Shown: positions 16,709-57,656, counted from the first letter of the stretch. The stretch is 58,553 nt of DNA from Candidatus Deferrimicrobium sp. (GCA_035562415.1 DATMWY010000204.1:1-58553); one strand, 5' to 3'. Translations and numbers: made by a program. Notes: generated from the sequence alone by a model not told the origin.

Positions 16709-16733
16709 GTCATTCCTGCGAAAGCAGGAATCC
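16709..16733. repeat. Hairpin repeat, family D (GTCATTCCTGCGAARGCAGGAATCC)
   Basis: Also present at 36893-36917 and 57596-57620, with an inverted variant at 57632-57656. Confidence 0.85.
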
Positions 16734-16752
16734 ATCTGTGTTCGTACGCGGC

Positions 16753-31403: not shown

Positions 31404-34055
31404 TTATCTCTGTAGCCGCCATTCGCCGGTGGCCACGAACGCGCCCCATGTGTACGGATGGTCAGGCAGGTTTCGCCGGCGAATATCACTAATCTGCTTG
31501 AGCGCCACTGTTCTCATCATCTCAGCCAGACTTTTTTCCTGAGAAGAATACAAGTGCCGCATGAAGGAGACGGTCTGTTTATCGGGAACTGGCCACAGGG
31601 AACTAATAACGGTACGAGCGCCAGCCATTTGGAATGACCGGCGCAATCCATATACTCCCTCACCGGTGGTTATCACGCCGAGACCTGACTCGCACGCCGA
31701 CAGAACAACCCACTCCGTTCCATAGAGATTCATGCCGGCTACTTCGTATGCGGTCAGGATACCATCTTCACTATCAATACTGTCAGTCCCGGGTTCGTGA
31801 CAATTGGCGCCGGCCAGCAGAAGACCAGAGAGAAGCAGCGGATGTTGTCCGAGCAAATGATCATCATCAGCCGCTTTTTCGCTGACCGTCTCTCGATGCG
31901 GCGCCGGCTCAAGAAAATAGCCATGGGTCGCCAGGTGAATAACCCTCTTCCCGGATGCTTCAACTTTGAGTTTTTCCTCGCTGGCATCAGGCCCCAAATA
32001 AACACGGGTGGATTCCTGCCAGCGTGCCGCCCAGCTTTCAGCTACAGCCTGCACTTCACGGCGCGTATTGGGCAGAGGAGTTGCTTGAGCCAGGCTGAAT
32101 CCGGAAACACCTGATCGAGTTGGTATCGACGGGTAATTGACTGACATAGAGACATGCTCTGTTGGAATGGGCAGTTGCAGTGATCGGTCCGCAATTACAG
32201 CTTCATAATCAGGGTCGCCGAAGGCCAACAGGCCCGAGCCCGGCCTGGAGAGATCCTGTAATCGAATGAGGTCCCGGCCGGCCGTCAGAAAATGGACTGC
32301 GTGCCGTTCAATGAGATAGTTGTTCTGGTCATCGATCAAACTGCCGAAAGACACAATGTTTAGTGCCCCATCCGGTGCTATGAGAATGAGCTGCTTATCG
32401 CTCAGCGAGGGGAGAAGTGGTTTGAAGACTTTCTCGCTCAGCGTGCGGGCGACCTGCCGATATGCTGTCTCGTCAGCTGGTGAGGGTACGCCGGATTGCG
32501 AAAGCCTCTTGAAGTGATTTCGGTAATCCTCCACCAAAGAATCGATATCTGCCGCCGGACCGATATCTTTCAACTGAGGATTCTCGCTGGAGGACAGACA
32601 GAGAGCCAGATATCTCGGTTCGACACTGTCCCGATCGGGCAGAGTGTACTCATAGCGTACGTATTCAATAAGACCGACCGTGTCGGGAAGCAGCGACAGA
32701 ATTCGGTCAACCGTGATCGGCTTGTGTTCCTGCAAGCGCCGGAAGCTCGCGCTCCGCCGCGCGAGATCGGCTTCACGTTCCTTAATCACCGCGGCCAACG
32801 ATTCCAGAGTATCACGGAGAGGCCGGGCGTTGGGGCTTTCGCCTCTGAAATATATCCGCGCCGCCTGGCGTCTCATGAGATTGAGTTCGTCAGCGAGTTT
32901 CTGTATATCCGGATCGTTTTCAAGCACCAGGCTCTTTTGTCGTTCGAAAAGCCCCTCGGAAACCTGGCCTTTTGTGGCAACGATGATGTCACCCACGAGG
33001 AAGGGAGATGGCCGTTGGCTGTCGGGGGTGTCATGAAAACATGACAGATAATTATTAGTGAATTGACGCAGGTACCGGGAATACCTAAGGACGTCGCTTT
33101 CTGAAAGCACTCTGGCATTGTCAAGAAGGTCACGATGTGCAATGGTGACGGCACGGGAAGCCGACGCAAGCGCCCTCGTGAATTCGCCCTGCTTTCGGCA
33201 GAGCCGGCTGATTTCCTGCAAGTCCACAGCCACGTCCCTGTGAGAAGATCCGAAAGTGTGTTCGTCAATAGCCAGGCAACGCTGCAAGAGCGATTCGGCT
33301 GCCACGTAGTTGCCCTGGTGAAAGTACACGTTCGCCAGACCGCGCAGTCCGTTGCACAGCCATGGGTGATTCGCTCCGTGCACCTTTTCCCTGTTTTTGA
33401 TATGCCGCAAATAAACGTCCTCAGCTTCCGGGAATCTGCCTTGAGCGGCGTAAACACTGGCCAAACTGGCCTGCTCGGAGGCCAACTCCCGCCTCTCAAG
33501 TCCAAAATGCTTCTCCTTAATGATCAGCGCTTTTTGGAACAACTGTTCGGCTTGAACAAAATCCCTACCCGTTGCATACACGATGGCCAGGTTGTTGAAA
33601 GTGGTGATTAGGTCCGGATGATCAGCCCCAAGTTTTGTCTCCTGAATGGTCTGCGCTCGACGGTACAATTGTTCGGCGTCGGCCAATTTGTTCCAACTCG
33701 CGTATACTGCAGCCAGACCGCTCAGGCTCTTCGCGACTTCCGGATCGTCTGGTCCCAGAATTCTTTGGCGTATTTCAAGCGATTTTCTGAGGCATGACTC
33801 GGCTGCCATCTGGTTGCCCTGAAAATAGTGGCATCGCCCCAGGCTCGACCATATCCTGGCAACTATGGTGTCCTCGGGACCCAATTGGGAGGCTGCCGAA
33901 TCCAGAGCCAGTTGAGCCAGCGAAATCGAGGAATCGAACTCCCACCGTTGGTAAGCCGAGTCCGCTTGATCAAGAAGCGCTTTCCAAGTCTGGCCAACGC
34001 AGTCAACTGAAATAAAGGACAGACATATCACAAACGAGATTCGATGAAGTTTCAT
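31404..34055 (-). CDS. Exported TPR-repeat + CHAT-domain (caspase-like) protease
   Basis: Signal peptide MKLHRISFVICLSFISV. About 7 TPR units in the N-terminal third. C-terminal CHAT domain with HLATHGYF (His) and VVLSACESGLG (Cys). Confidence 0.88.
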   Translation of the reverse strand: MKLHRISFVICLSFISVDCVGQTWKALLDQADSAYQRWEFDSSISLAQLALDSAASQLGPEDTIVARIWSSLGRCHYFQGNQMAAESCLRKSLEIRQRILGPDDPEVAKSLSGLAAVYASWNKLADAEQLYRRAQTIQETKLGADHPDLITTFNNLAIVYATGRDFVQAEQLFQKALIIKEKHFGLERRELASEQASLASVYAAQGRFPEAEDVYLRHIKNREKVHGANHPWLCNGLRGLANVYFHQGNYVAAESLLQRCLAIDEHTFGSSHRDVAVDLQEISRLCRKQGEFTRALASASRAVTIAHRDLLDNARVLSESDVLRYSRYLRQFTNNYLSCFHDTPDSQRPSPFLVGDIIVATKGQVSEGLFERQKSLVLENDPDIQKLADELNLMRRQAARIYFRGESPNARPLRDTLESLAAVIKEREADLARRSASFRRLQEHKPITVDRILSLLPDTVGLIEYVRYEYTLPDRDSVEPRYLALCLSSSENPQLKDIGPAADIDSLVEDYRNHFKRLSQSGVPSPADETAYRQVARTLSEKVFKPLLPSLSDKQLILIAPDGALNIVSFGSLIDDQNNYLIERHAVHFLTAGRDLIRLQDLSRPGSGLLAFGDPDYEAVIADRSLQLPIPTEHVSMSVNYPSIPTRSGVSGFSLAQATPLPNTRREVQAVAESWAARWQESTRVYLGPDASEEKLKVEASGKRVIHLATHGYFLEPAPHRETVSEKAADDDHLLGQHPLLLSGLLLAGANCHEPGTDSIDSEDGILTAYEVAGMNLYGTEWVVLSACESGLGVITTGEGVYGLRRSFQMAGARTVISSLWPVPDKQTVSFMRHLYSSQEKSLAEMMRTVALKQISDIRRRNLPDHPYTWGAFVATGEWRLQR

Positions 34056-34580
34056 ATCGTTCAATTCTCCAGCAGTCACCGATGCCCATCAGGGTGTTGA
34101 TTGGAATATGCCTTCGGCAAAGTTGCTGCAACCACAAAGCCGAACATAAGAATAAGCGCTAAGCCTGCATAACGCAAGAGGCACGGAGTCATGGCCTCTC
34201 CGGGGTAATGTGATCAAAAGTGTGTAAGACAATATAAACCGTTACCCGCAGGAGAAGACTCAGGAGCAAGTAATGGGTAGACAGCCGAGCGTGAGTCAGA
34301 GTTGTTGCAGGTGGAAGTCAAGCTTCGTGATTACTCCCGGACGGCAGTTATCGACTCCGGAATAACAGCGGACTATCCTGAGAATAAACTGGGCCAAAGG
34401 GCTGACATGCTCACGAGTCATCCGAGATGTCCCGAATTGCTCAAGCAGGAAACTCGAAATCTTTTCCCGAACGGTTTGACAGCCGCTCAGTAATGAGGTT
34501 AAAGAGGGGACTGTATTCCGAATCCGCGGAACAGCTAAGGTCTTTTCATCGGCCCTGCTGCCCGTATCCCTAATGTCACA

Positions 34581-34654
34581 TAGCGGTGCAGGGACTCGAA
34601 CCCCGGACACGCGGATTATGATTCCGCTGCTCTAACCAGCTGAGCTACACCGCC
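34581..34654 (-). tRNA. tRNA with CAU anticodon (elongator Met, or Ile2 if lysidine-modified)
   Basis: GGCGGTG-TA-GCTC-AGCTGGTTA-GAGC-A-GCGGA-ATCATAA-TCCGC-GTGTC-CGGGG-TTCGAGT-CCCTG-CACCGCT-A. 74 nt, cloverleaf folds by hand, no encoded CCA. Confidence 0.9.
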
Positions 34655-34684
34655 ATGATCTGTTGTAAAGGCACGCGCCAATTG

Positions 34685-34713
34685 ATTGTATCACCGGCGC
34701 CCATGAGAGTCAA
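34685..34713 (-). promoter_or_regulatory. sigma70-type promoter TTGACT-N17-TACAAT upstream of the tRNA
   Basis: Minus strand: TTGACT (34713-34708), 17-nt spacer, TACAAT (34690-34685). About 30 nt upstream of tRNA position 1. Confidence 0.6.
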
Positions 34714-34741
34714 GGGGATAATGTGCCGCCCTGTTTGTTCC

Positions 34742-34812
34742 GTAGGGCGGGAGTCCGCCGCGGCGGACTCACCTGCCTATTATGTGGCAGGTCTGAAGCA
34801 GACCTGCCCTAC
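34742..34812. repeat. REP-like composite element, family A
   Basis: GTAGGGCGGGAGTCCGCCGCGGCGGACTCACCTGCCTA-ttatgt-GGCAGGTCTGAAGCAGACCTGCCCTAC. Lies 30 nt downstream of the BCCP gene stop. Confidence 0.85.
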
Positions 34813-34842
34813 GCTTAATTGCGGTTTATGATGCAAACAGAA

Positions 34843-35340
34843 TTACTGAGCCAGCTCCAGCTCGATAATCGGCGACTCGGTGTCGACCTGGTCGCCGGCG
34901 GAAAAATTGATTGCCCTGACTGTGCCCTTCGCGGCGGCATTGACCTGATTTTCCATTTTCATGGCCTCGACTATCACCAGCGGCTGTTTCAACTCGACCG
35001 CGTCACCCAGGCCCACGAGAATCTTCACGATTTTTCCGGGCATCGGCGCGTACACTTTGTCCCGATCTCCGACATGGTGATCGGCTGCCTGACCATAGGC
35101 GATATCAGCGGCATCCCGCACTTCAAGCTGTACGGAATCGATTTCGATATAGTACACGCCCTGATGCTTGACGACCGCAACGACAGATCGCACGCCATTA
35201 GCGGTCAGGGCAAAAAGATCTCCCCCAAGGGGACGCAGGTGCAACTGCTGTCCTGACACCGTGACCTTGAAAGTATCACCGGTCGTCTCAAGAGAAGAGG
35301 TGACCATAGCGCCATCGAAGAGGAACTCATGGCTACTCAT
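34843..35340 (-). CDS. Biotin carboxyl carrier protein (biotinyl/lipoyl domain)
   Basis: C-terminal PMPGKIVKILV..VIVEAMKMENQV biotinylation motif. The ATG at 35340 overlaps the upstream stop (ATGAGTAG). Confidence 0.88.
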   Translation of the reverse strand: MSSHEFLFDGAMVTSSLETTGDTFKVTVSGQQLHLRPLGGDLFALTANGVRSVVAVVKHQGVYYIEIDSVQLEVRDAADIAYGQAADHHVGDRDKVYAPMPGKIVKILVGLGDAVELKQPLVIVEAMKMENQVNAAAKGTVRAINFSAGDQVDTESPIIELELAQ

Positions 35341-36838
35341 GGATAGAGTCCCCAATCTGCCAGCGTCCGATGAGTTCCCAGGGCGACGGCATCGCTGTCG
35401 CTTTATGTCCCTTCGAAGCTGTCGTCACCGTCGTGCACGAAGCCGCTGTGGCCGCGGCAACGGCGATATGTTTGTACGCTTCCATGTCAAGACGGCGGTC
35501 GGCCATGTTTTTCTCGATGAAGCTGGTAAACGTCCTACCGGCTGAAAAGTCCGGGTGCGACAGGACGTCGATCATGAACCTCTTGGACGTTTTGACACCG
35601 AGGATTTTGTACTCATTGAGTGCCCGAATCATCTTGGCAATAGCCAGCTCGCGAGTTGGCGCGTGGACAATGAGCTTGGCCATTATGGGGTCATAGTCAA
35701 TGGTGATCTCTGAACCGCACTGTATGCCGGAGTCAGCGCGAATACCGGGACCGGATGGCTCCGTGTAGTGAATGATGCGGCCGCTTGACGGAAAGAAATT
35801 GTTCTCTCCGTCTTCGGCGTAGATACGGCATTCGATGGCATGCCCGCGCTGCGTCAGATGATAAAACTGTTCGCTGAGGGGAAGGCCGGCGGCAATGCGG
35901 ATCTGTTCGATCACAAGATCGGTGCCGGTGACCAGCTCGGTGACCGGATGCTCGACCTGCAGGCGCGTATTGACCTCGAGGAAATAGTAGTGGCCCGTCT
36001 CATCAAAGAGAAATTCAACCGTGCCGGCGTTCGTATAGTGGGCTGTCTGTGCTACTTTGACCGCATCGGCGCCCATGCGCGCGCGGAGTTCATCGGTGAG
36101 CGCCGTCGACGGGCTCTCTTCGATTATCTTTTGATGCCGGCGTTGAATAGAGCACTCCCGCTCAAAGACGTGAACGGTACGGTCGTGGTGGTCGCCCAGA
36201 ATCTGAAACTCGATATGCCGGGGATTGACCAGATATTTTTCGAGGTAAACGGTGTCATCGTCGAAGGCGTTTTTGGCTTCACGACGGGCCGCTTCGAGCG
36301 CCGCCGGAAGTTCATCGGGCCTGTGGACAACGCGCATCCCCTTACCACCGCCGCCGGCTGCCGCTTTGATAAGCACCGGGTAGCCTGCCTGCTTGGCGGC
36401 CTTTTCGAAAACCGACAAATCCGTTGCGGTCGATTTCATGCCGGGGATAATCGGCACTCCGGCTTCAGCCATCTTGATCCGCGACTCGATCTTGTTGCCC
36501 AGAAGGCGTATCGCCTCCGGTGTCGGACCGATAAACGTAATCTTTTCCTGTCGGCAGCGCTCCGCAAAGGCAGGATTCTCCGCCAGAAAGCCGTAGCCCG
36601 GATGAATCGCCTCGCAATCGGTCTGCTTTGCGGCCGTGATGATCTTATCGATGTCAAGGTATGACTCTCGCGGCGGCGACGCTCCGATATGCACCGATTC
36701 GTCGGCATAAAGACGATGCTTGCTGTCCTTGTCCGCATCCGAATAGACCGCCACCGACGGTATCCCCAGCGTCCGGCAGGCGTTCATCACCCGGATGGCG
36801 ATCTCGGAGCGGTTGGCGACGAGGATTTTGTTGAACAT
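35333..36838 (-). CDS. Biotin carboxylase subunit of an acyl-CoA carboxylase
   Basis: MFNKILVANRSEIAIRV.., ATP-grasp core (GYPVLIKAAAGGGGKGMRVV), EMNTR-type motif (FLEVNTRLQVEHPVTE). Starts at 36847 or 36850 are also possible. Confidence 0.92.
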   Translation of the reverse strand: MFNKILVANRSEIAIRVMNACRTLGIPSVAVYSDADKDSKHRLYADESVHIGASPPRESYLDIDKIITAAKQTDCEAIHPGYGFLAENPAFAERCRQEKITFIGPTPEAIRLLGNKIESRIKMAEAGVPIIPGMKSTATDLSVFEKAAKQAGYPVLIKAAAGGGGKGMRVVHRPDELPAALEAARREAKNAFDDDTVYLEKYLVNPRHIEFQILGDHHDRTVHVFERECSIQRRHQKIIEESPSTALTDELRARMGADAVKVAQTAHYTNAGTVEFLFDETGHYYFLEVNTRLQVEHPVTELVTGTDLVIEQIRIAAGLPLSEQFYHLTQRGHAIECRIYAEDGENNFFPSSGRIIHYTEPSGPGIRADSGIQCGSEITIDYDPIMAKLIVHAPTRELAIAKMIRALNEYKILGVKTSKRFMIDVLSHPDFSAGRTFTSFIEKNMADRRLDMEAYKHIAVAAATAASCTTVTTASKGHKATAMPSPWELIGRWQIGDSIHE

Positions 36839-36892
36839 TCTTTTCATCATCTTTATTCGTGGCCAGCAGATGTCCACATCTGCCGCCGCTTC

Positions 36893-36991
36893 GTCATTCC
36901 TGCGCAGGCAGGAATCCAGTATTTGTAGGTCATGAACCTTGTGGTTTTGACATTCTTCTTATGAGTCAGGAGCGCAAGGCTCCTGACCTAC
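36893..36991. repeat. Family D hairpin (36893-36917) followed by a GTAGGTCA..TGACCTAC-bracketed hairpin (36926-36991)
   Basis: GTCATTCCTGCGCAGGCAGGAATCC, then GTAGGTCA..TCAGGAGC-gcaag-GCTCCTGACCTAC. Confidence 0.8.
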
Positions 36992-37029
36992 TCGAACTAT
37001 CGCGAAGCATACTCTGAATAAACGACTCG

Positions 37030-37989
37030 CTAATCGTCATGCTCCTTTTCCGGTCGAACCCATCGAACGACAGCCCGACTGAAAGCCTCAAAGTAAAGCG
37101 AAAGAAGGAGGGCACCGCCTGCAAGTACAGTAACTCCTCCGACCAATATCCACCATCCAATCGACTGGCCACTCACTACGAGACTCAGACCTATGCCTCC
37201 TAGATATTGAGTAAGTCCCCCAACTAATGCCACTGAGCCTGCGAAGATAGCAATATTAAATACTGAACGACTAATACCCGGACGCTTGGATGCTCTGATG
37301 AGGGTCCGGAGAACGTGACTTTCAAGCGCACGGATAGTATATGCACACACGAGCTGCCGATAAAAGTCGCGGCCGTCCGGCTCGTACATGTGATAGAACG
37401 TATCACCGCCATAAAACTCGTTACGAGGGTCAATGGGATCAATGGCGGCATTTGCAAAGGCAGACTTCGTCTCGTTGACTCTGTTCGGAATGACTGGTCC
37501 AAGGATATCAAAGGCCATCCGACTTGCCATACTTCTAAGTAGTACATCTCCAGTTGATAGGAACAGGCTATTGTTCTTATCAACCCCATAACCTTCATCA
37601 CGAAGGTGTGAGTGGTATTGATGAGCGAGGTCTCGAATCGTTAACAACCGACCTTTCGCTTCCTCCCGCGACGGTCTGCGGGAGCGATCTTTGCCCCAGA
37701 GGATTTCCTTAGCTTTCTCCTCAGCGAATCCAAAGTCTGCAATCACAAGATCATAAGGACCATTGCGCGATACGCGTTCGATATTTCGAATCGTTTTCTC
37801 AGAGACCTTCCAAAAACCTGGCTGCTCTGGAATTTCATCAAGCTCAACATCAACATGGTGAATATCCAATATCACCGTAACATCTTCATGAACCACACGA
37901 TGACCAGCCAACAGCTTTTCAAGTGCGACATTCATGTCCTCATCGTCGTCGATGAGTATTAGTCGGTACCGAATCATTCGCTGTCGCAT
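37030..37989 (-). CDS. Orphan protein: receiver-like N-terminal domain + two C-terminal TM helices, family unknown
   Basis: 319 aa, GGAGG upstream of the ATG. YRLILIDDDEDM and YDLVIADFGF resemble REC beta1/beta3. C-terminal hydrophobic segments VFNIAIFAGSVALVGGLTQYLGGIGLSLVV and IGWWILVGGVTVLAGGALLLSLYF. Spot G+C is lower than the flanks. Confidence 0.7.
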   Translation of the reverse strand: MRQRMIRYRLILIDDDEDMNVALEKLLAGHRVVHEDVTVILDIHHVDVELDEIPEQPGFWKVSEKTIRNIERVSRNGPYDLVIADFGFAEEKAKEILWGKDRSRRPSREEAKGRLLTIRDLAHQYHSHLRDEGYGVDKNNSLFLSTGDVLLRSMASRMAFDILGPVIPNRVNETKSAFANAAIDPIDPRNEFYGGDTFYHMYEPDGRDFYRQLVCAYTIRALESHVLRTLIRASKRPGISRSVFNIAIFAGSVALVGGLTQYLGGIGLSLVVSGQSIGWWILVGGVTVLAGGALLLSLYFEAFSRAVVRWVRPEKEHDD

Positions 37990-38101
37990 CTTCCCAAGCC
38001 TCCTTCCGATCTATGACAAAAAGCCTTGTAGGGCCTGTGCTCTGCGCACCTGCCTATATATTATTTGCAGCATCACAGGGATCCTGCTCCACTTGTGATT
38101 G

Positions 38102-38884
38102 TCAATCCACCCACCCCGGCTTCCTCTTGTGCAAATACGCCGCCATCCCCTCCTGCCCTTCCTCGGAGATTCGCAGGCGGGCGATCATCTCGGCGGTGTA
38201 CGGTTTGAACTGCTTTGGCGTCATGGATGGCACCTCGCTAATGAGTTTCTTTGCCATAGCTACAGCTTCCGGCCCGGAGGAAAGGATTGACGCGGTCAGT
38301 TTTTCGACTTCGGTGTCGAGTTGCTCATCGTCAACGACTTTGTTAACGAGCCCCACTTCGGCGGCGCGATCGGCGGTCATTCGTTCGCCGGTGATGAACA
38401 ATTCCCTCGTCCTTCCTTCCCCGACCTTCTTGACGACGTATGGTCCGATGCAGGCCGGAATGACGCCGATCTTCACCTCGGAAAACGAAAAGACGGCCGA
38501 CCGCGCGGCTATGGCAATGTCGCACACGGCGACAAACCCCGCGCCGCCGCCGATGGCAGCGCCGTTGATTCTGCCGATAATGGGACGCTTGCAGGTGTAC
38601 ATGCGATGAAACAACTCCGCCAAAGCGTTGGACTCGGCGAGGTTTTGCTCGAATGATTGGTGTATCACCGCGCGCATCCAGTTCAGGTCGGCTCCGGCGC
38701 AAAACGATTTGCCGGCGCCGGTCAGGACGACGACGCGCACCTTGTCGTCCTTCTCGATCTGTTCAAAGACGTCCAGCATCTCGGTGATCACGGTCGCATT
38801 GAAAGCGTTGTGGATCTCCGGGCGGTTGAAGGTAATCCGCGCCACCCGGTTTTGCTTCTCGTACTTAACAGTTGTGTAATTCAT
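38102..38884 (-). CDS. Enoyl-CoA hydratase/isomerase family (methylglutaconyl-CoA hydratase-like)
   Basis: 260 aa from the ATG at 38884: VARITFNRPEIHNAFN..VVLTGAGKSFCAGADL..GAAIGGGAG. Confidence 0.9.
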   Translation of the reverse strand: MNYTTVKYEKQNRVARITFNRPEIHNAFNATVITEMLDVFEQIEKDDKVRVVVLTGAGKSFCAGADLNWMRAVIHQSFEQNLAESNALAELFHRMYTCKRPIIGRINGAAIGGGAGFVAVCDIAIAARSAVFSFSEVKIGVIPACIGPYVVKKVGEGRTRELFITGERMTADRAAEVGLVNKVVDDEQLDTEVEKLTASILSSGPEAVAMAKKLISEVPSMTPKQFKPYTAEMIARLRISEEGQEGMAAYLHKRKPGWVD

Positions 38885-38890
38885 ACTCTT

Positions 38891-38917
38891 GTAGGGCAGG
38901 TCTGCTTCAGACCTGCC
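38891..38917. repeat. REP hairpin, family A (single unit)
   Basis: GTAGGGCAGGTCTGCTTCAGACCTGCC, 7 nt from the hydratase start codon. Confidence 0.85.
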
Positions 38918-38929
38918 AATAATAGCTCC

Positions 38930-39039
38930 GTAGGTCGGATTCCAAGTCCCGCTTTTGCGGGACGAGAAAGCCGACATCTTCTCCGAAAGTTGTTGTCGGG
39001 TTTCTCATTCCGCTTCGCTCCAATCGGAACCCGACCTAC
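38930..39039 (+). repeat. 110-bp MITE/REP-like element, family B, copy 2
   Basis: Same ends and nested palindromes as 23192-23301. Sits inside the carboxyltransferase-hydratase intergenic spacer. Confidence 0.85.
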
Positions 39040-39092
39040 TATCTACATGTAATCGGCGCACGAGGACGTACGCCGACCACGTAAGCCTGCCG

Positions 39093-40700
39093 TTACATTC
39101 TAAAAACGCCATACTGCTGATCCGGAATCGGCGCATTGAGCGACATCGAGATCCCCAGCGCCAGCGCCTGGCGCGTCTCCGTAAAGCCGAGCATGCCGTC
39201 ATCCCACAGCCGCGCGCCCGAAAAGTACGGCGTCGATTCGGCCTCGTATTTCTCGATGATTGGCCTGCGAATGGCGTCAATATCCTGTTGAGAAAGCTTG
39301 CGCCCCTCAGCTTCAAGCTGCTGAATCTTGACCGTCGCGAGCACGTCCGCCGCCTGCTCGCCGCCCATCACGCATATCCGCGCATTGGGCCACATCCACA
39401 TCAGACGCGGAAAGTACCCGCGACCGCACATGGCATAATTGCCGGCGCCATAGGAACCGCCAACGACGATGGTAAACTTGGGTACATCGGCGTTGGCCAC
39501 GGCGTGAACCATCTTGGCGCCGTCGCGTGCGATACCGCCGGCTTCATACTGCCGACCGACGATAAAGCCGGAAATGTTTTGCAGGAATATGAGTGGAATT
39601 TTGCGCATGGTACACAACTCTATGAAATGCGCCCCTTTGACCGATGACTCCGAGAAAAGGACGCCGTTGTTTCCGATAATCCCCACGAGGTATCCCATGA
39701 TACGAGCGAATCCGGTCACCAGAGAAGCCCCGAACAACTCTTTGAACTCATGAAAGCGCGAGCCGTCCACGAGACGGGCGATAACCTCGCGCACGTCGAA
39801 CTGCTTGCGGACGTCGCAGGAGACAACGCCGTAAAGTTCTTCCGGATCATAGTAGGGGTCCTCCGGGTCGGTGCGATCCAGATTGAAGCGCGGTGGGCGA
39901 TTGAGATTCTCGACGATATTGCGGCAGATTTTCAGAGCATGCTCGTCGTTCTGCGCATAATGGTCGGTTACACCCGAGACGCGACAGTGAACATCGGCTC
40001 CACCCAGCTCCTCAGCAGTGACGACCTCTCCGGTGGCCGCCTTCACCAGCGGCGGTCCGCCGATAAAGATAGTCCCCTGCTTGCGCACGATGACCACTTC
40101 ATCCGACATCGCCGGTTGATACGCGCCACCGGCAGTGCAGGACCCCAGCACCGCGGAAATCTGGGCGATGCCTTTGGCCGACATCCGCGCCTGATTGTAA
40201 AAAATTCGCCCGAAATGATCTTTGTCGGGAAACGTTCCGGCTTGCAGCGGGAGGAAGATGCCGCCGGAGTCGACGAGGTACACGCAGGGCAGATAGTTGG
40301 CCTCGGCAACGGCCTGGGCGCGAGCGTGCTTGAGGATTGTCATCGGATAGTACGTGCCACCCTTGACGGTGGCGTCATTGACGATAACCATTACTTCGCG
40401 TCCGTGCACGACGCCGATACCGGTGATGATTCCGGCCGCCGGAGCCTCGTTATCGTACATGTCACAGGCCGCCAACGGGCTCAATTCGAGAAAAGGCGTA
40501 TGGGGATCAAGCAGTCGCGCCAGACGGTCGCGGGGCAGCAATTTGCCTCGTTCAACGTGGCGCTGCCGTGATTTCTCCGGTCCCCCCCGTTTCACCTTTT
40601 CGAGGCGCTGTTTGAATTCGGCGTGAAAGGCCTTGTTCTTGTCGTAGTTTTCCTTGTAGACGTCGGACTTCGTATTGATTTTGGATTCTATTCGAAACAT
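39093..40700 (-). CDS. Acyl-CoA carboxylase carboxyltransferase (beta) subunit, methylcrotonyl-CoA carboxylase-like
   Basis: 535 aa from the ATG at 40700. Typical carboxyl_trans sequence ([39 protein letters not shown]). Confidence 0.92.
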
Positions 40701-40866
40701 CGAAAAGCACTCTACCGTTTGACTCGCATTGTTCCTTTCAGTCGCCCAACGCGTTCGCACTCAAGAAGTAACTTCGAACGTTCTGCGCCGGGCGTCATTT
40801 ACGCGAAAAATATAGGCGAGGAAGAACCGCTTGGCAAGGACGGCGAATAAACGCGCGTGCGGATAG

Positions 40867-41904
40867 TTACTGGCCGTCTCTAAGTCGAGGCTGATGAAAC
40901 ATAGCCGCCGAGAGCTTCGCCTGCTCACATAGCCGAGACACGAGCGCCGGGGATTCCACCAGCCGGATAATCCGGTCCGCGAGACCAACAGGATCGTTTG
41001 GTCGCACCATGAGGCCATTGACACCATCTACGACCATTTCCGAAATACCTCCCGCCGGGGTTGTGACGACCGGCAGTCCGATTGTAAGCGCAGCCGGCAA
41101 TGAATACGGCAGGCAATCGATGGTCGACGCGTTCACGTACAGGTCTACCTGCGACAACTGGGCGGCCAATTCAGTCAGGTTCAGACGGCCTGCAAATGAC
41201 ACGCCATGTATCCCTTTCGCGGCGACCAGATCCGACAACTGGCCACGCAGTGAGCCGTCACCCGCGACAACCATCTCAGTTCGCGGATACTTTTGTTTCA
41301 CAAGCCGAAGTGCTTCCAGAGCACAGGCGATATTGTTTCTGGCTTCCAGAGAGCGAGCCACTATGATCCGTGGCTGCACGCTATGAATTTCACGTGGTTG
41401 AAAAAGCTCATCGTCGACTGCCGGAAGGCGGACCTCCGTTGTGACGCCGTGACCCGCCAGCATAGTCGCCAGGAAATTGGTCGACACGACAATCTTGTCG
41501 CACAGGCGCATGAGCGGTGTCATCCACCAGCCGGCCCGTGCCAGCCGGGTCGGCGCATTGTTGTCGCTGTAGCTTAGAATCGTGCGTTTTCCAAGGAATC
41601 GTCCGAGGATGAGCGCCGGCGCCGCTTGTCTGGCGAATGAACTGCCGGAGGCAGTTTCAATGTGGACAGTGCCGCAATCGGAGATGGCTCGGAACAGATT
41701 TCTAGCGCCGAGCAAGACGCGCGGCAGTCCTGACCACCAGCCGATGGGAGATGCCGAAGCATTCGGGTACAGAAGGTCGTCTGTGTTATGATCGGGTGCA
41801 ATGAAAAGCACACCGTCCTGTTGCCCGTCGCCACCACGGCCCAGATCGTCGCGATTGACGACGGGCGACCGGTAGGCAGCTATATCCTCAGCCCTTAACG
41901 TCAC
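40867..41904 (-). CDS. GT4-family (GT-B fold) glycosyltransferase
   Basis: C-terminal half has the typical GT4 pattern (VVAGDGSLRGQL.., LYVNASTIDCLPYSLPAALTIGLPVVTT, EMVVDGVNGLMV). GTG start, uncertain. Confidence 0.8.
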   Translation of the reverse strand: MTLRAEDIAAYRSPVVNRDDLGRGGDGQQDGVLFIAPDHNTDDLLYPNASASPIGWWSGLPRVLLGARNLFRAISDCGTVHIETASGSSFARQAAPALILGRFLGKRTILSYSDNNAPTRLARAGWWMTPLMRLCDKIVVSTNFLATMLAGHGVTTEVRLPAVDDELFQPREIHSVQPRIIVARSLEARNNIACALEALRLVKQKYPRTEMVVAGDGSLRGQLSDLVAAKGIHGVSFAGRLNLTELAAQLSQVDLYVNASTIDCLPYSLPAALTIGLPVVTTPAGGISEMVVDGVNGLMVRPNDPVGLADRIIRLVESPALVSRLCEQAKLSAAMFHQPRLRDGQ

Positions 41905-57422: not shown

Positions 57423-57595
57423 TCCCGCTCAAACGGCTTATCAGGTTTCAGAGATTGCGGAGGGGCGAGAGGGGATAGAGGACACAAAAAATCCTCTTGA
57501 CAGGGTGCGGGGTTTTCGTTATCCTTGGACGTAATCCGAGAGTAAATGCATTTTTCTGGTTTCACGTCAATAATGAAGTTTTGGAGTCGAGCGTC

Positions 57596-57656
57596 GTCAT
57601 TCCTGCGAAGGCAGGAATCCACTTACTTCCCTGGATTCCCGCATTCGCGGGAATGA
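57596..57656. repeat. Two inverted family D hairpins
   Basis: GTCATTCCTGCGAAGGCAGGAATCC (57596-57620) and GGATTCCCGCATTCGCGGGAATGAC (57632-57656). Confidence 0.85.

Follow-up and report, generated by a model that had tools for sequence, protein, structure and literature searches.

A receiver-like gene with a predicted membrane tail inserted in a leucine-catabolism-type carboxylase operon of Candidatus Deferrimicrobium sp., a candidate member of a rare modular effector family

The DNA considered here, called the window throughout, is a stretch of 58,553 nucleotides from Candidatus Deferrimicrobium sp. (GCA_035562415.1, DATMWY010000204.1:1-58553). It carries a cluster of genes encoding a carboxyltransferase (39093-40700), an enoyl-CoA hydratase (38102-38884), a biotin carboxylase (35333-36838) and a biotinyl carrier protein (BCCP; 34843-35340), each of them confirmed by Pfam. 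Between the hydratase and biotin carboxylase genes lies the subject of this analysis, the protein gene P0001 (37030-37989, minus strand), which encodes 319 amino acids comprising a receiver-like domain, a family-specific extension and a predicted two-helix membrane hairpin. The gene is co-oriented with the carboxylase operon and has its own ribosome-binding site, a strong Shine-Dalgarno-like sequence found by inspection 9 nt 5' of the ATG (GGAAGGAGG; 37999-38007, minus strand). A preliminary description of the region had reported this reading frame and its neighbors, and had seen no kinase or other obvious partner adjoining the gene; all of this holds in the window. A TPR-CHAT gene (31404-34079) was considered as a partner and rejected, as the carboxylase genes lie in between. 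The sole match in an Rfam scan of positions 34000-41000 was a tRNA at 34581-34654.

The P0001 gene is an insertion in a conserved operon of the leucine-catabolism type. The hydratase locus was compared with that of ten relatives from the same family and order, and in all ten the order carboxyltransferase, hydratase, biotin carboxylase, BCCP is kept while the P0001 gene is missing. The spacer between the hydratase and biotin carboxylase genes measures about 15-75 bp in these relatives (10/10), in contrast to 1263 bp in the window, and because it is short in every one of them, the additional segment of about 1.2 kb is most simply read as inserted DNA. In the closest relative (G008, L030), the spacer shares a hairpin, termed A below, and the start region of the carboxylase gene with window positions 36845-36886; since these are retained there, the insert can be placed at roughly 36887-38101 (minus strand), from the hydratase stop codon to the native hairpin before the biotin carboxylase gene. 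The preliminary description had proposed an orphan gene inserted in the carboxylase cluster and had suggested looking for its presence or absence at this locus in related genomes. The empty sites agree with that proposal, as does the failure to find the family anywhere in the genomes of 60 relatives or in 284 other genomes of the phylum.

The junction of the insert with the hydratase gene was independently assembled, as a Logan unitig from the single public run holding the sequence (a freshwater sediment metagenome) covers positions 36891-38517. The other junction crosses a 30-nt genome-wide repeat that forms a branch point in the Logan assembly graph. No transposase or integrase was found at the insertion site, nor was there a clear target-site duplication, a 12-nt direct repeat being only 83% identical.

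Three hairpin elements lie in the spacer on the 3' side of the gene (36839-37029), and each of them is repeated elsewhere in the genome; copies were counted at up to 4 mismatches. Hairpin A (36858-36886; GCAGATGT/ACATCTGC; 11 genome copies) is native to the hydratase-carboxylase spacer and lies outside the insert, which it must predate because it is present in the corresponding spacer of the closest relative. Hairpin B (36891-36919) is REP-like, with an 8-bp stem (ATTCCTGC/GCAGGAAT) and about 71 matches in the genome, 15 of which lie within 400 nt of contig ends; it is the element at which the k-mers branch in the Logan graph. Hairpin C (36963-36995), also REP-like, has a perfect 9-bp stem (GTCAGGAGC/GCTCCTGAC), begins 35 nt past the stop codon and is present in 16 genome copies. 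Compared with shuffled sequence, this spacer is strongly structured (z -4.1 and -3.2). On the 5' side, the hairpin at 38021-38056 occurs once in the genome, the structure of the spacer is not unusual relative to shuffled sequence (z -1.1), and one weak terminator-like site follows the hydratase gene. The earlier picture of REP-type hairpins on both sides was therefore right for the 3' side, with its recurrent elements A, B and C, but not for the 5' side, where the hairpin is unique. The P0001 gene is followed by REP-type elements rather than bracketed by them, and the notion that such hairpins enclose it like a mobile cassette is unsupported on the 5' side.

The composition of the P0001 gene is foreign. 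Its reading frame has 48.6% G+C and 44.7% GC3, against 56-58% and 65-75%, respectively, for the four operon genes, which bears out the lower G+C noted in the preliminary description. Among 1605 long open reading frames of the genome it ranks at the 2nd percentile for G+C and at the 0.8th percentile for GC3, and in a sliding window the G+C fraction is 0.47-0.50 across the gene versus 0.55-0.62 in the flanks.

The amino-terminal part of the protein (residues 1-169; 37483-37989, minus strand) has the characteristics of a divergent receiver (CheY-fold) domain, with a β-hairpin inserted at about residues 31-62. It is followed by a family-specific α/β extension (residues 170-235; 37285-37482, minus strand) with conserved R170, T174, D187, R189 and Y210; in the AlphaFold2 (AF2) model, the final segment of this extension is a long connector helix (207-234) that runs on into the membrane. 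The AF2 model of residues 1-235, built with a deeper alignment, reached a pLDDT of 96 and a pTM of 0.92, while that of the full-length protein had a pLDDT of 85. The receiver identity of the amino terminus follows from a profile match, low-scoring controls and a conserved pocket. When the family profile was aligned by hhalign to a receiver profile built from 37 receiver domains of the same genome, residues 7-169 matched positions 1-119 of the receiver model, which is the whole model, with a probability of 95.3% (E 6e-9). Twenty column-shuffled receiver profiles gave at most 1.8%, a reversed profile 2.6% and a TIR profile 0.2%. The extension (170-235) had no match to the receiver profile. The profile match places the domain in the receiver superfamily, and the secondary structure of the AF2 model is consistent with a (βα)5 fold. 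Residues 7-169 are thus assigned, on the basis of sequence and model, to a divergent receiver domain carrying a β-hairpin insert, as the preliminary description had surmised from receiver-like strands.

The pocket residues agree with this assignment. D14 and D15 align with the acidic pair that follows β1 in receivers, D85 with the phospho-acceptor aspartate at the end of β3 and T117, which is likewise conserved, with the threonine of β4. D85 is invariant among 61-67 family members that share a mean identity of only about 20%, and D14, D15, L121, R170, D187 and Y210 are each at least 90% conserved in the same set. The exception is the conserved lysine that ends β5 in receivers; its position is occupied by S153 in P0001 and by serine or threonine across the family, with alanine in one member. 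R170, which is lysine in a few members, is conserved and lies near S153 in the sequence. Without the receiver lysine, these proteins may be unable to carry out classical phosphotransfer.

The divergence of the domain is also evident from searches of a more general kind. The Pfam receiver model (PF00072) did not match P0001 (E ≤0.1) or any of 61 members (E ≤0.01). Foldseek searches of PDB and BFVD with the full-length and amino-terminal models returned nothing under E 1e-3; the best matches were generic three-layer α/β proteins, including Arf/Rho GTPases, the receivers RssB, DesR and ETR1, flavodoxins and SGNH-like proteins. Those to receivers were weak (RssB, E 5e-3; ETR1, E 2e-2), with query-normalized TM-scores of at most 0.30. 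A phage protein in BFVD labeled as a "cyclic-phosphate processing receiver domain" protein gave a target-normalized TM-score of 0.62 with an rmsd of 3.9 Å, at E 0.07. In a profile search of PDB, claudin-like proteins matched the membrane helices (E 0.03) and receiver matches were sub-threshold. The structure and profile searches suggested in the preliminary description thus gave a divided answer: hhalign identified a receiver, but PDB and BFVD held no close structural match. No claim is made for a Macro, SLOG, SAVED, CARF or STING-like sensor, as Foldseek found only generic folds, none at E <1e-3.

The carboxyl-terminal part of the protein (residues 239-310; 37060-37275, minus strand) is predicted, from the AF2 model and from hydropathy across the family, to be a glycine-rich two-helix transmembrane hairpin. 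The helices span residues 239-272 and 277-310 in the model, in line with the two membrane helices named in the preliminary description. Basic residues flank the hairpin on both of its cytoplasmic sides, and a conserved FE..F.R....W motif follows it. Two hydrophobic carboxyl-terminal helices are present in nearly all family members by hydropathy (61-67 sequences). One member matches DUF308 (PF03729) weakly (1.2e-4), and the homolog P0009 is named "DUF308 domain-containing protein" by NCBI.

The family to which P0001 belongs is small, uncharacterized and unnamed, and its cytoplasmic domain is without a close structural neighbor. Scans of P0001 with Pfam, NCBIfam and PADLOC assigned no family, the lone match being one of chance level to a small LAXTG protein (E 0.05). 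Homologs numbered 19 among 5.8 billion proteins, none more than 53% identical to P0001, and 64 clusters among 1.8 billion representatives; one of them, P0013, is annotated by JGI as a "CheY-like chemotaxis protein". When one genome from each GTDB species was scanned with a pattern, only 3 further loci came to light, one in a Calditrichia MAG and two in Verrucomicrobiota MAGs, and among 400 sampled Verrucomicrobiota the family was found only in one known carrier. Phage, plasmid and IMG/VR collections yielded no homologs. The distribution is extremely patchy and crosses phyla, and the gene contexts vary.

Several relatives connect the family with TIR domains. In P0016, P0018 and P0019, a TIR domain (PF13676/PF01582) stands in place of the membrane hairpin; their first 235 or so residues are colinear with P0001 and 48-57% identical to it, so that hairpin and TIR are exchanged at a single boundary at about residue 235. 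A fourth protein, P0017, which is seemingly truncated, is a frameshifted TIR fusion (TIR reading frame at L051:1535-1912; HMM E 3.7e-44). P0009, encoded in a Chthoniobacterales MAG, retains the hairpin and has a gene for a 170-aa TIR protein 46 bp upstream on the same strand, and this TIR is 37-40% identical to the fused ones. In the Calditrichia MAG (L010), the family gene is followed by a gene of 159 aa with unknown function and then by an overlapping ThsB_TIR gene (E 4.6e-21). The partner and fused TIRs match the PADLOC model for ThsB and other defense TIR models, and the catalytic glutamate in the S.W...E motif is kept in both the P0009 neighbor and the fused TIRs. In a maximum-likelihood tree of the amino-terminal domain, the TIR fusions form one clade (support 98/83), and P0001 is sister (97/84) to a group composed of this clade and that of P0009.

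About a dozen independent gene contexts were examined, with the distant half of the family thinly sampled, and an all-against-all BLAST of the neighboring reading frames found no conserved neighbor other than TIR. One context has a HEPN_AbiU2 gene and a SIR2-TPR gene; another has a gene for a 1399-aa nSTAND NTPase, a DUF3800 gene and an integrase; a PIN gene is present in one more, and several contexts otherwise consist of ordinary genes. Of the distant members, one is preceded by a MerR gene and another by an HTH_17-receiver regulator gene; the two regulators have no detectable homology to each other. A kinase gene next to the family gene was found neither in the window nor in the roughly 12 homolog contexts, and none of the latter contains carboxylase genes. 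An adjacent ThsB-type TIR gene is present for P0009 and the Calditrichia locus and absent from the window. A TIR partner acting in trans was considered for the window's gene and rejected; the two TIR genes on other contigs of this genome encode proteins that share only 23-34% identity with the partner TIRs, and they lie among housekeeping genes (PIN/archease/RtcB and SecA).

The preliminary description had likened the layout of the protein to that of abortive-infection effectors. This idea has gained circumstantial support from the exchange of hairpin for TIR, from the TIR and ThsB neighbors and from the patchiness of the family, but no defense model matches the protein (the PADLOC models recognize neither P0001 nor P0009), and the copy in the window has no partner. 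Several other observations speak against an effector. Most copies, including that of the window, are without a TIR, a kinase or a recurrent partner. The two distant members beside ordinary regulators would fit a role in signaling. To these may be added the lack of homologs in the phage, plasmid and IMG/VR collections, the missing receiver lysine and the ordinary genes that make up several of the neighborhoods.

The explanation that best accommodates the evidence, to which we would assign a probability of about one half, is that P0001 is a horizontally acquired, stand-alone, receiver-gated membrane effector of the conflict or abortive-infection type, belonging to a rare and unnamed modular family and present here as an orphan. 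The argument for a modular conflict effector comes from the hairpin/TIR swap at one boundary, the adjacent TIRs, the sporadic distribution and the foreign composition. Under this explanation, the cytoplasmic receiver-fold domain would act as a switch through its acidic pocket (D14, D15 and D85), either by phosphorylation of Asp85 or by binding of a small molecule that bears a phosphate. The state of the switch would reach the glycine-rich hairpin through the family-specific extension and its connector helix, whereupon the hairpin would oligomerize and compromise the membrane, leading to growth arrest or death. For the sister clade, the proposal is that this switch domain instead drives a TIR domain that either consumes NAD or makes a signal. 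Alternatively, the switch may work beside a separately encoded ThsB-like TIR protein, whose product would be the likely ligand, in a logic like that of Thoeris. The trigger, the damage to the membrane by a pore or otherwise, and the role in phage defense are the parts that we infer. A bolder form of this explanation, put forward tentatively and with less confidence, is that the lysine-less receiver fold is a receptor for a nucleotide signal made by TIR, or else a kinase-independent phospho-switch, gating either a pore or a TIR NADase, and that the family constitutes a new class of immune effector.

It is also conceivable, though rather unlikely, that P0001 is an atypical membrane-anchored signaling protein resembling a response regulator, without any role in conflict; it might be a phosphate sink, or a regulator tethered to the membrane and supplied by an unlinked kinase or acetyl-phosphate, and the links to TIR would then reflect signaling and not killing. 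In favor of this, the domain is homologous to receivers and its pocket is intact in the paired aspartates, the acceptor aspartate and the threonine. The JGI label of P0013, the distant members that follow the MerR and HTH_17-receiver genes, and the presence of at least 37 receiver domains in this genome, which implies that kinases are available in trans, all lean the same way. However, the distribution of the family is far too sporadic for a component integrated in host physiology, no context has an adjoining kinase, and the receiver lysine is absent. In addition, a TIR with its catalytic glutamate as the exchanged output, together with neighbors of the defense-TIR type, is typical of immune modules.

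An enzymatic role is improbable. According to this proposal, P0001 would be a membrane-anchored enzyme that uses the aspartate-rich pocket of a receiver- or HAD-like fold for phosphoryl or cyclic-phosphate chemistry, for instance to degrade or process a nucleotide signal; the hairpin would serve solely as an anchor. The near-invariant polar residues outside the receiver pocket (R170, T174, D187, R189 and Y210) count in its favor, and the phage "cyclic-phosphate processing receiver domain" protein offers a structural parallel by TM-score (0.62), but at E 0.07, and no enzyme family was matched significantly by sequence or structure. Moreover, the hairpin carries a conserved juxtamembrane motif and has been swapped for a TIR in relatives, not simply lost, as is more readily understood for an output module than for an anchor.

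It is about equally doubtful, or slightly more so, that the gene is a decaying or silent passenger, currently functionless in this genome. In favor of this, the gene is an orphan without partners, it interrupts an operon and it has REP elements packed behind it. Nevertheless, the reading frame is intact, the Shine-Dalgarno sequence is strong, all of the family-invariant residues are kept and the fold prediction is of high confidence. Finally, that P0001 is a functional accessory of the methylcrotonyl-CoA-carboxylase-type operon (a regulator, a membrane tether or a transporter subunit) is very hard to sustain, since its co-orientation and ribosome-binding site between the hydratase and biotin carboxylase genes are outweighed by its absence from the site in 10/10 relatives, which contradicts membership, by the roughly 12 homolog contexts without carboxylase genes and by its foreign composition.

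Should the explanation of P0001 as a receiver-gated effector be correct, the family would supply a previously undescribed sensor domain for bacterial immune effectors, one with a receiver fold that has no linked kinase and is tied to TIR signaling. It would link the chemistry of two-component systems to immunity of the TIR/Thoeris type and add one effector type to the 29 already cataloged. In the bolder and less probable form given above, and under the logic of Thoeris, it would represent an additional Thoeris type that has not been listed, with an effector able to persist also as a single gene, as it does in the window. The amino-terminal domain, with a confident model and no close structural neighbor, is a clean target for work on ligands or phosphorylation. 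The locus also places an accessory and candidate defense gene inside a housekeeping operon of this uncultured lineage. This has consequences for the annotation of operons in MAGs, and searches for defense genes that are based on islands would miss inserts of a single gene.

Two known defense systems invite comparison with P0001. In Detocs, the phosphorylated receiver of DtcC is described as activating a swappable killing domain, with transmembrane versions among them (10.1101/2023.01.24.525353). The P0001 family is similar in that an amino-terminal receiver fold with an aspartate at the phospho-acceptor position governs an exchangeable carboxyl-terminal effector. It differs in that the DtcA kinase and the DtcB buffer receiver are absent from the contexts examined, with no PADLOC match for P0001 or P0009, and in that the receiver of P0001 is without the conserved lysine and has both a β-hairpin insert and a 65-residue extension. 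Furthermore, the alternative effector of the family is a TIR, which does not figure in the effectors listed in the available part of the Detocs report (10.1101/2023.01.24.525353). In Thoeris, ADPR derivatives made by TIR proteins activate effectors, many of which have membrane-spanning helices; a recent survey gives 29 putative effector types, the membrane effectors including the Macro-TM of type II and, in types V-VII, proteins with DUF2270, DUF6650-TM and SLATT (10.64898/2025.12.03.692087). Two lineages of the P0001 family have a ThsB-like TIR gene nearby together with a candidate ligand-binding domain joined to transmembrane helices, which is the layout of pore-forming effectors activated by TIR signals. 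Unlike the Thoeris effectors, however, P0001 has a cytoplasmic domain of receiver fold and not of the Macro, SLOG, SLATT, DUF2270 or DUF6650 kind, most copies of the family (the window's included) have no TIR neighbor, and the fusion of TIR in place of the membrane part in some relatives is not a Thoeris layout. The terms "receiver", "CheY" and "DUF308" are absent from the text and supplements of the survey as available (10.64898/2025.12.03.692087).

Comparison with more general families leads to a similar mixture. P0001 shares with canonical receivers (PF00072, CheY-like) a profile homology that extends over the whole model and the equivalents of the aspartate pair, the acceptor aspartate and the β4 threonine, but it falls below Pfam detection, has serine or threonine in place of the invariant lysine, carries large inserts and has no linked kinase. 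The glycine-rich paired transmembrane helices are reminiscent of DUF308/HdeD proteins, as the NCBI name of P0009 reflects, although P0001 itself has no DUF308 match and HdeD proteins have no cytoplasmic receiver-like domain. With no DtcA or DtcB, no PADLOC match and no TIR neighbor, the P0001 gene belongs to neither Detocs nor Thoeris as these are defined. The logic that the family appears to follow is nevertheless one already known.

The operon that contains the inserted gene for P0001, a receiver-like protein with a two-helix membrane hairpin, has a second small insertion, between the carboxyltransferase and hydratase genes, since the spacer there (window 38885-39092) is 208 bp long, in contrast to about 10-80 bp in ten relatives of the same family and order. 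On the other side of the P0001 gene, the mechanically called biotin carboxylase ORF (window 35333-36877) starts at a GTG at 36877 and encodes 514 aa. The likelier start is the ATG at 36838 (501 aa), the position from which the biotin carboxylase homologs of the ten relatives align. The 514-aa ORF would extend into hairpin A, one of the REP-like hairpins 3' of the P0001 gene.

These short hairpins belong to three families and are found at window 36858-36995 and genome-wide, for example at window 16709-16734 and 57594-57621. Across the genome, with up to 4 mismatches, there are 11 copies of A, about 71 hits for B, and 16 for C. The MAG is split into 303 contigs, and the repeats have probably caused much of this fragmentation, as 15 of the roughly 71 B hits genome-wide lie no more than 400 nt from a contig end. 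In the Logan assembly of run X1 (a freshwater sediment metagenome), the P0001 ORF lies, together with 416 nt of the hydratase gene, on a unitig with a k-mer depth of 15.3, compared with 3.6-7.2 for the adjoining unitigs (window 36000-38800); this difference may be a sign of strain heterogeneity in the sediment sample.

Homologs of P0001 were found in several other contexts. Two related metagenome contigs are syntenic (L004:9225-16086 and L050:2810-5435), sharing the gene order family gene, PTR2/MFS transporter, LigT-like gene. In L004, the family gene is separated from the transporter by an insertion of approximately 4.4 kb, made up of additional small ORFs and a fragment of a PTR2 gene. In two unrelated contexts, NMT1-type ABC transporter genes (L001:13083-16101 and L045:2077-4679) occur no more than a few genes downstream of the family member; the recurrence is probably coincidence. 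P0017 (297 aa; L051:780-1912) is a frameshifted receiver-like-TIR fusion in which the TIR portion resumes in another frame (L051:1535-1912); the gene is a pseudogene, or else the frameshift is an error of sequencing. Nearby, the opposite strand carries a PIN gene.

TIR genes are also present elsewhere in the genome of the window. One, on the minus strand at C296:9293-9781, encodes a stand-alone TIR protein of 162 aa (PF13676, E 5e-22) with a hydrophobic C-terminal tail, LVVGSLAAFFLLLYMGKK, and adjoins PIN-like, archease-like, and RtcB-like genes. The other TIR is the C-terminal part of a larger protein of 357 aa (C261:13979-15052, minus strand), the gene for which adjoins a SecA-like gene; the names of these neighbors, at both loci, come from sequence reading rather than family search.
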